44,529 bases of DNA from Escherichia phage SP1, in sequence record PV610739.1; one strand, given 5' to 3'. A program made the translations under genes and the position numbers. Of the stretch, positions 16,576 through 16,972 are shown in pieces. Below the pieces are notes generated by a model that was not told the DNA's origin, made no database searches, and saw only the letters and a program-made list of their open reading frames with translations. The stretch's first letter is position 1, and each line of letters opens with the position of its first letter.

Positions 16576-16579
16576 TGAA

Positions 16580-16704
16580 GCGGGACGGATCGGGACGTCC
16601 CGCTTTGTCCCGTTTTGTCCCGCCACCTGCAAAACTGCATACCTACTCACTTTCATTGCATAAACTCAAAGCGGGACGAGCGGGACGTCCCGATCCGTCC
16701 CGCC
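16580..16704. repeat. two palindromic iteron clusters built on GCGGGAC / GTCCCGC
   Basis: 16580-16623 and 16671-16704: direct and inverted GCGGGAC copies around perfect palindrome CGGGACGTCCCG; each followed by a TGCATA-containing unit. Confidence 0.7.
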
Positions 16705-16747
16705 CCCTAAATGTGCATACCTATTCAGATTTCGTGCATAAAACAAA

Positions 16748-16848
16748 CGGGACAGAAAGCGGGACAAACATGGGGCGGGACAAAGCGGGACAGCACCCCG
16801 TCCCCGTCAGTGCTGCCGCGGGTTTCAGCCGATCGGGACAAGCGGGAC
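16748..16848. repeat. direct iteron array, copy A (6 x (G)CGGGAC)
   Basis: Iteron starts spaced 12, 16, 10, 48, 9 bp; identical spacing in copy B at 44257-44358. Confidence 0.75.
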
Positions 16849-16852
16849 AAAC

Positions 16853-16904
16853 CCCAGTCTTTCAGACTAGACGGGGGTCAGTTGGCCCCCCTCGTCTGAG
16901 ACTG
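16853..16904. repeat. 52-bp hairpin element, copy A
   Basis: Identical to 44363-44414; nested inverted repeats (AGTCT/AGACT; AGACGGGGG/CCCCCCTCGTCT); no T-tract. Confidence 0.8.
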
Positions 16905-16972
16905 AATAAGGTTTGTTTGAAATTCGCTGATACAATGTCAATCGGCAACTGCATAAAAAAGGGGACTGCATA

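Follow-up and report, generated by a model that had tools for sequence, protein, structure and literature searches.

A duplicated array of phased iterons with a hairpin in Escherichia phage SP1 and other Dhillonvirus genomes: a candidate replication origin with an exchangeable recognition word

The two copies of the element

The sequence of Escherichia phage SP1 (record PV610739.1), whose whole length of 44,529 bp is called the window below, is a complete Dhillonvirus genome of an HK578-like Escherichia coli siphovirus, with 99% identity to Haito_Bas83, RuthEpting_Bas85 and vB_EcoS_WFI in the region tested. An element built up by short phased repeats (iterons) and a hairpin is found twice in this genome. 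One copy, region A, occupies the gap between the GT chaperone reading frame and the gene for the tape measure protein (TMP), and the other, region B, starts 66 bp past the stop codon of a primase-helicase gene. Genomes of the genus have been reported as headful packaged and circularly permuted, based on PhageTerm (PMC8407724, PMC10059673). Because of this permutation the ends of the window are conventional, and the two copies are 27.5 kb apart in one direction and 17 kb apart in the other.

Region A was pointed out in a reading of the letters alone (the sequence-only reading), which described a non-coding insert with six direct repeats between a GT frameshift extension and TMP. The flanks are as claimed, with a Phage_TAC_4 family match, an A7 run, a -1 frame that is open to the left border of region A and TMP at its right border. 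The six direct words of the type (G)CGGGAC are present as well, but the region holds 15 words in all, and the nine that were missed include two palindromic clusters, the second of which is a perfect reverse complement of part of the first (25 nt, 100% complementary). Counting both strands, CGGGAC/GTCCCG occurs 32 times in the 44,529 bp, with 15 occurrences in 16576-16972 and seven in 44150-44529. The rate in the rest of the genome gives an expectation of about 0.09 per region, and the Poisson probabilities are about 1e-28 for region A and 7e-12 for region B.

The direct words start at positions 16748, 16760, 16776, 16786, 16834 and 16843 in region A and at 44258, 44270, 44286, 44296, 44344 and 44353 in region B, with a spacing of 12/16/10/48/9 in both, as the sequence-only reading had noticed. 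A gapless alignment of 197 nt (16713-16909 against 44223-44419) has 82% identity, which is 100% in the words and 68% in the linkers. Behind each array is a composite hairpin of 50 nt, identical in the two copies of this genome and more stable than shuffled sequence both as RNA (-29.7 kcal/mol, z -4.4) and as DNA (-12.7 kcal/mol, z -3.3). The GC content is 27.5% at 44220-44259, directly beside an array of 67-80% GC in a window that is for the most part about 55% GC, while the A+T-rich boxes in region A are less marked with 35-40% GC. A box of the sequence ACGGCAGCA closes the module in every lineage examined.

One frame is open throughout region A, which the sequence-only reading overlooked: an open reading frame (ORF) with an ATG start extends from the GT stop to the TMP start and overlaps both (16575-16973, 132 aa). 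Relatives have a region A of 401, 385 or 384 nt, lengths that are unequal modulo 3, and stops interrupt the frame at codon 40, 103 or 106. Three of 14 relatives keep the start context GCATAATGA exactly. Pfam and PHROG gave no match for this ORF or for ORF 44154-44510, which runs across region B. The ORF 16575-16973 was rejected as a gene and is treated as a chance ORF because its length, frame and start all vary among relatives and no family matches it.

Sites with at most one mismatch to ACGGCAGCA are more common than expected in the whole genome, with 60 sites, mostly on the + strand, compared to 15 in dinucleotide shuffles (for example at 1477, 9864, 18632, 20521, 41708 and 43480). This excess could be due to codon bias, or the sequence could be a real recognition site, for instance for priming. 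The ATG of a 24-codon ORF (44436-44510, MYGSMMRIAVVDELGNQCELYYGE) is found inside a TGCATAATG box right past hairpin B, and it mirrors the TMP start codon, which likewise is in a TGCATAATG box past hairpin A.

Conservation in Dhillonvirus

Both copies were found in all 158 Dhillonvirus records in GenBank. Among 16 contigs in IMG/VR with the hairpin stem, 14 have two copies in the same orientation; one of the two exceptions is cut by the contig end and the other is a sister lineage in which the stem of the second copy has diverged. An alignment of 15 genomes shows no change in the words, the hairpin stems, the TGATACAAT sequence and the CGGCAAC box, whereas linkers and hairpin loop drift. The sequence-only reading had proposed a comparison with relatives as a check and would have counted absence or lack of conservation in close relatives as a refutation; the element is conserved in every relative checked, and this check does not refute the claim. 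Its statement that the hairpins are identical is true for the window genome and specific to it: the apical loops differ between the two copies in relatives, and only the stems are invariant. A compensatory change from A-T to G-C is found in the hairpin stem of the sister lineage. Strict concerted evolution of the two hairpins was rejected because the loops differ within most genomes.

The repeats have been recorded before. The GenBank record of Sodalis phage SO-1 from 2009 (GQ502199) annotates a "region A" and a "region B" as mutually similar repeat regions with a "possible" function, and other annotators have marked a repeat region or a terminator there, in the WFI record a terminator inside cluster 1. 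No paper analysing the two regions was found in literature searches. Since the repeats were flagged already in 2009, what is new here is the assignment as an origin and the swapping of word and winged helix described below.

The same module with other words

More remote lineages were sampled in IMG/VR by way of the primase-helicase and portal proteins, and BLAST showed them to be related to, among others, Klebsiella phage VLCpiS11a, Pantoea phage AH01 and Salmonella phage FSL SP-031. The module was found immediately past the stop codon of the primase-helicase gene in seven lineages, each with a different word: GCGGGAC in the window phage and its sister lineage (L034, L219), TCCGACA (L041, L101, L125, L155), CGGACA (L122, L169), GGGATAA (L043), GGGGATG/A (L046), GGGGGAGA (L140, FSL SP-031) and TTGCGAG (L109, L111, L123, L124). 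The order of the parts is the same, with one or two GAATAGTTATGCA boxes, three to four direct words, one to two inverted words, a spacer, two direct words, a composite hairpin, a TTATGCA box and finally the ACGGCAGCA box.

The spacing is also kept when the word is changed, with 12/16-17 between the first words, then the inverted words, about 55 nt to the distal pair and then the hairpin. The hairpins at this position are of unrelated sequence in the different lineages, and their DNA z scores are -1.4 to -4.6, with -2.4 or lower in eight out of ten. A constant geometry combined with a changed word is what would be expected of a fixed protein assembly with an exchangeable recognition code. The claim in the sequence-only reading of an array that binds protein in a fixed register is thus well supported, in that the linkers change, and in other lineages even the word, but not the geometry.

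Two tandem arrangements were seen among the relatives. In locus L116 the ACGGCAGCA box has grown into six GGCAGCAT units in tandem, and six tandem units of 12 nt (TAACAGGTGGTG) are found at 2245-2311 in L150, at the apparent 3' end of a coding region and with promoter-like sequence just downstream.

The primase-helicase and the candidate binders

The primase-helicase is composed of an AEP/PrimPol primase, a cysteine- and histidine-rich segment, a RepA-like AAA_25 helicase and a C-terminal winged helix. The helicase is supported by a Pfam match to AAA_25 (RepA/RecA-type, E 3e-19), PHROGs places the protein in phrog_3228, and a marginal PDB profile match to 1g8y (RSF1010 RepA, E 0.16) was the sole helicase among the PDB profile matches. 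Some homologues are named "helicase RepA family protein" by NCBI, and the primase domain is AEP-like by fold. No SF3 helicase or P4-type primase/helicase family was found in the protein with Pfam, PHROGs and PDB profiles. A protein search with the C-terminal 194 aa alone gave no matches, and homologues were obtained with the full-length query.

Comparisons between lineages show that the predicted recognition helix of the winged helix carries a distinct signature for each word class. Pairs with different words and 92-99% identical helicase cores (for example L101/L169, L122/L140 and L155/L122) have winged helices that are 45-62% identical, compared to 60-95% for pairs with the same word. The mean ratio of winged-helix to helicase identity is 0.93 for same-word and 0.64 for different-word pairs. 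Because the winged helices diverge while the helicase cores match, the signal of the word is separated from plain phylogeny. The second copies that are situated far from the winged-helix codons also use the word of their own genome, both region A, 27.5 kb away, and the second copy of the Klebsiella-phage lineage, about 9 kb away. Physical linkage to the winged-helix codons cannot explain this match.

Only one DNA-binding domain was found to change along with the word, the predicted winged helix of the primase-helicase, and we infer that this winged helix binds the words, in agreement with the sequence-only reading, which had suggested the C-terminal domain as a binder. Other candidates were tried and rejected. 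An XRE-type HTH protein upstream is conserved across differing words, and a 380-aa protein (3729-4871), which has a weak GerE HTH and a metallophosphatase domain and is labelled "transcriptional regulator" in SO-1, was found in only one of the 11 loci searched. For TerS, the identity is 89-96% in comparisons of phages whose words differ and 50-57% where the word is shared.

Occurrence and history of the second copy

Region B is ancestral because it is found in all seven word lineages, and region A arose in the ancestor that Dhillonvirus shares with its sister lineage. The gap between GT and TMP in the sister lineage (L219, contig IMGVR_UViG_3300045988_050407, 4467-5295) is 828 bp and holds an iteron-hairpin module together with an apparent moron gene on the reverse strand, which has its own promoter region flanked by ATTGGTTGC, and a terminator past GT. 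GT and TMP abut with no insert in the distant relative L223. The second copy of the Klebsiella-phage lineage is placed elsewhere, past the head-morphogenesis gene, and the TCCGACA and CGGACA lineages gave no second copy in the 10 kb to each side of the portal gene. The features of both regions and their surroundings are listed in Table 1.

Table 1. Position of features in and around region A and region B of the window (strand given as + or.)
Feature	Position	Strand	Remark
Strong intrinsic terminator	15860-15876		GGGGCC-loop-GGCCCC, then T6; directly 3' of the major tail protein gene and 5' of the G/GT chaperone genes
Phage_TAC_4 chaperone gene	15884-16261		Family match
A7 slippery run	16251-16257		-1 frame open to 16575; GT reading plausible
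Region A, whole non-coding GT/TMP insert; second, lineage-specific copy of the module	16576..16972	+	Conserved in 15 aligned Dhillonvirus genomes
Palindromic iteron cluster 1	16580..16622	.	Two direct and three inverted CGGGAC words, about 10-bp spacing
Moderately A+T-rich box 1	16631..16664	+	TGCATAC...TGCATAAA; related to the GAATAGTTATGCA box of region B
Palindromic iteron cluster 2	16671..16703	.	Two direct and two inverted words
Moderately A+T-rich box 2	16709..16742	+	TGCATAC...TGCATAAA
Direct iteron array A	16747..16849	+	Six (G)CGGGAC words, 12/16/10/48/9; words invariant across 15 genomes
Composite hairpin, copy A	16855..16904	.	Stems invariant, loop variable across genomes
TGATACAAT, extended -10-like	16928..16936	+	About 37 nt upstream of the TMP start codon; by eye; invariant in 15 genomes; putative promoter element
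ATCGGCAAC	16941..16949	+	Region A version of the 3' ACGGCAGCA box
TMP gene, start	16973
Primase-helicase gene	41886..44150	+	754 aa; proposed initiator for both copies
Codons of the C-terminal winged-helix domain	43848..44105	+	About aa 655-740; proposed iteron reader
A+T-rich box of region B	44216..44256	+	GTGAATATAGTGAATAGTTATGCATTTTTATTGCATAAAG; candidate DNA-unwinding region; box kept across lineages with different words
Iteron array B	44257..44359	+	Six direct words (12/16/10/48/9) and one inverted word at 44311
Composite hairpin, copy B	44365..44414	.	Same as copy A in this genome
ACGGCAGTA, 3' box	44440..44448	+	Preceded by -10-like CATAAT

A candidate replication origin

The anatomy of the element, the domains of the neighbouring protein and the co-variation of winged helix and word suggest that each copy is probably an iteron-plus-hairpin replication origin bound by the primase-helicase. 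The winged helices of a multimeric primase-helicase would bind the GCGGGAC words and assemble in a fixed geometry, and the adjacent A+T-rich stretch would open. The quasi-palindromic hairpin might then be extruded on single-stranded DNA and serve as a loading and priming signal for the AEP primase of the same protein. Region B, directly 3' of the primase-helicase gene, would be the primary site. Region A, as a later duplicate in the tail operon, may be a second origin, or it may act like oriR of phage SPP1 as a roadblock with bound initiator that stalls replication forks and helps the switch from theta replication to concatemers in a phage with headful packaging.

Several observations weigh against this interpretation. 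The literature searched holds no replication data or mapped origin for any Dhillonvirus, and the cumulative GC skew mirrors the orientation of the genes with no signal at either copy. The winged-helix codons adjoin array B, so their co-inheritance with the word could be hitch-hiking, and the remote copies alone argue otherwise. A 109-aa HTH_23 protein (41546-41875) is present only in the GCGGGAC clade and may be the binder of the word within that clade. The second copy is absent from several lineages (within 10 kb on both sides of the portal gene) and is thus not generally essential. The loci L113, L114 and L116 have the same protein (47-48% identical over the C-terminal half of the primase-helicase) but a mere remnant of the module, displaced by inserted genes: terminators and a cassette of reverse-strand genes are found directly past the primase-helicase gene, and the remnant consists of one to two GGATAA-like words, a CCCCCTA/TAGGGG hairpin and the ACGGCAGCA box. 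Finally, both copies are situated at transcription-unit positions and each ends in a -10-like hexamer, and a transcriptional role therefore fits the location equally well.

Other explanations

Such a role would mean that the element is a transcription boundary, where the transcript from upstream is ended or insulated by the hairpin, the words bind a phage activator or repressor and the -10-like 3' element is a middle or late promoter, for the late operon past region B and for TMP and the distal tail genes past region A. We regard this as the serious alternative, though unlikely as the sole function, and it may coexist with an origin in the form of transcriptional activation. Region B is found between the early primase-helicase operon and the + strand genes leading to lysis, terminase and head genes. 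Region A is situated about 700 bp past the strong terminator that follows the major tail gene; this terminator would throttle all downstream expression, which bears on whether region A supplies a promoter, and the invariant TGATACAAT is found about 37 nt before the TMP start codon. A -10-like hexamer ahead of the ACGGCAGCA box is seen by eye in several lineages, and the terminator marked by the WFI annotators inside cluster 1 points in the same direction. However, a consensus scan gave no sigma-70 promoter in region B and only one match in region A, at 16547-16576, with TGATACAAT uncalled, and it gave no terminator at either hairpin, both of which lack a T run (the tails are GAATAAGG and CATAAAAT). 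Canonical promoters of the type TTGACA-N17-TATTGT are found by eye further downstream of the module in relatives, and no other operon start of the genome carries the module. The sole co-varying DNA-binding domain is moreover fused to a replicative helicase, and no separate regulator tracks the word. The hairpin could instead act in cis as a structured RNA together with its flanks, as a put-like antiterminator or as a site for RNase III processing or stability, and the two copies would then lie at the start of the late transcript and within it. The stability of the RNA fold, the invariant stems with free loops and a compensatory change, and the sense orientation of both copies relative to the flanking genes are consistent with this, but it appears improbable: palindromes fold equally well as DNA, Rfam 15 gave no match at gathering score anywhere in the window, and neither the phased 7-bp words in mixed orientation nor their co-variation with the winged helix would be explained.

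Two further possibilities do not involve expression. The element may be a selfish or neutral repeat, mobile or recombinogenic, that has spread to a second site without a role of its own in replication or expression. The site of the second copy does vary, from the GT/TMP gap in Dhillonvirus to a position past the head-morphogenesis gene in the Klebsiella-phage lineage, and the second copy of the sister lineage travels with a moron gene. Against this, words, stems and 3' box are under strong purifying selection in both copies in the 158 records while the linkers drift, the geometry is kept through changes of the word, and no copies were found in the plasmids and E. coli genomes searched, which makes the selfish repeat even less probable than the structured RNA. 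The least probable explanation of all is packaging, proposed as an alternative in the sequence-only reading, with the words as TerS-binding repeats of a headful pac site. Short phased repeats are used in pac and cos sites of other phages. The records of the window, WFI and Zar3M all end about 115 bp past hairpin B, and the genus is headful packaged (PMC8407724, PMC10059673). Fixed genome ends near region B were rejected since the genus is reported as circularly permuted (same references), and the common record ends are most simply explained by a convention in depositing permuted genomes. Packaging is disfavoured because the identity of TerS is unrelated to the word, as seen above, the terS gene is at least 5 kb from either copy, and two copies per genome are unexpected for a pac site.

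Comparison with known systems

The sequence-only reading had likened the element to the bipartite origin of phage P4. P4 has two separated clusters of the same short iteron, which are bound by the C-terminal domain of a single primase-helicase (alpha), and the second cluster, crr, is required in cis. To our knowledge P4 has no comparable hairpin. The similarity consists of two iteron clusters and a primase-helicase with a C-terminal winged helix in the window phage. The helicase is however RepA-like (AAA_25) and the primase AEP-like, and the second cluster is absent in several related lineages. Homology to P4 alpha was rejected, as no P4-type or SF3 family was detected, and the element falls outside the P4 family. 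Since the second copy is not generally required, an obligatory partner of the crr kind is also argued against. Of the earlier claim, the origin itself is still the best fit, but the P4 family does not stand and an obligatory bipartite structure is unlikely, given lineages without a second copy and one lineage with the second copy placed elsewhere.

By analogy, oriL and oriR of SPP1 are a closer precedent for the duplication than P4. SPP1 is a 44-kb pac siphovirus with two origin copies, each with direct repeats and an A+T-rich region and bound by G38P; oriL is inside the initiator gene 38 and oriR in a non-coding, moron-bearing segment that splits the late structural genes (PMC6316719, PMC3485210). 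Initiator bound at oriR has been proposed to stall forks and trigger the switch from theta to sigma replication (PMC6316719, PMC3485210). The window phage similarly has a copy beside the initiator gene and another that splits late genes, here GT and TMP, within a non-coding segment, and in the sister lineage the second copy is beside a moron. The differences are that the site is 3' of the gene and not within it, and that primase, helicase and winged helix are in one polypeptide, whereas SPP1 has a separate initiator, a loader and a DnaB-type helicase and uses host DnaG. These papers describe no hairpin in the SPP1 origins (PMC6316719, PMC3485210), and the likeness drawn here is one of layout.

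In the IncQ plasmid RSF1010, RepC binds oriV, RepA unwinds, and the AEP-type RepB' primes on the hairpins ssiA and ssiB beside the iterons (PMC8567376, and for the iterons a reference cited in it). The window protein has a RepA-family helicase and a RepB'-like AEP primase, and with primase, helicase and winged helix in one chain it unites activities that IncQ plasmids split among RepB', RepA and RepC as three separate proteins. No separate co-varying DNA-binding protein of the RepC kind was found among the candidates examined. RSF1010 has two ssi sites of 40 nt on opposite strands, while the phage has one composite palindrome per module that can fold on either strand, and the phage uses 7-bp words in mixed orientation. 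The archaeal plasmid pRN1 has an essential, structure-dependent stem-loop origin just 3' of the gene for ORF904, a protein with AEP, helicase and winged helix; the stem-loop is kept in structure and not in sequence, and the same layout has been noted in some bacteriophages (PMC4234260). A multifunctional protein of this composition with a hairpin just downstream of its own gene is common to both. Unlike the phage, pRN1 has an SF3 helicase and a stem-loop of about 100 nt, and no iteron array has been reported as needed, whereas the phage protein has a RepA-like helicase and the phage hairpin, of about 50 nt, comes after a phased array of iterons. Taken by analogy, the element most likely works like an origin of the IncQ (RSF1010) or pRN1 type fused to its initiator and duplicated as in SPP1.

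Other observations in the genome

The sequence ATTGGTTGC has 17 exact copies in the genome, mostly in pairs 11-35 bp apart, and 24 copies with at most one mismatch, where 12.5 are expected. The sites are 40-48, 71-79, 3340-3348, 10989-11011, 30158-30177, 31830-31855, 34776-34796, 38603-38627, 41347-41355, 44162-44205 and 44479-44487. The pair at 40-79 overlaps a plausible promoter (TTGCAT-N17-TAGATT), and related lineages have GTTGGCTG in place of ATTGGTTGC at corresponding positions. It is probably an operator or promoter motif of a phage regulator. Another pair is situated at the upstream end of a reverse-strand ORF (10201-11010), which lies inside the + strand block of head genes at about the position of the reverse-strand gp7 of SO-1, annotated as "DNA polymerase III beta subunit; possible moron".

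The ORF for a family-A polymerase (35243-37534) is uninterrupted in the window; its counterpart in SO-1 (GQ502199, 30312-33500) is annotated with a self-splicing group I intron and an internal ORF. Imperfect repeats rich in GTC/TTC are found on the + strand at 37776-37999 and 40812-41144, and they would encode acidic runs if they are inside the - strand ORFs 37760-38548 and 40758-41279.

Conclusions

Dhillonvirus is a common group of E. coli siphoviruses and is well represented in the BASEL collection. [quoted passage not shown] A wider picture, possible but doubtful at present, is that of a one-protein replicon in Dhillonvirus and its relatives, in which the fused AEP primase, RepA helicase and winged-helix initiator would read the phased array and prime on an ssi-like hairpin beside it, and in which the winged helix and the array are swapped between phages as a cassette that sets specificity. 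At least seven "origin alphabets" would then exist, with effects like incompatibility or exclusion in co-infection, the copy in the structural operon of two lineages would be a programmed fork barrier that sets the concatemer switch, and the hairpin might be sensed by OLD or Lamassu.

The element would be an ordinary one if it were merely a transcription boundary. The assignment of an origin with its domain, word and hairpin would on the other hand allow the construction of mini-replicons, engineering of the replication host range and tests of whether defence systems sense origin hairpins. The second copy would be a Gram-negative counterpart to the fork-stalling model of SPP1 oriR, and the swaps of word and winged helix on a constant geometry would make these phages a natural system for the evolution of initiator specificity.

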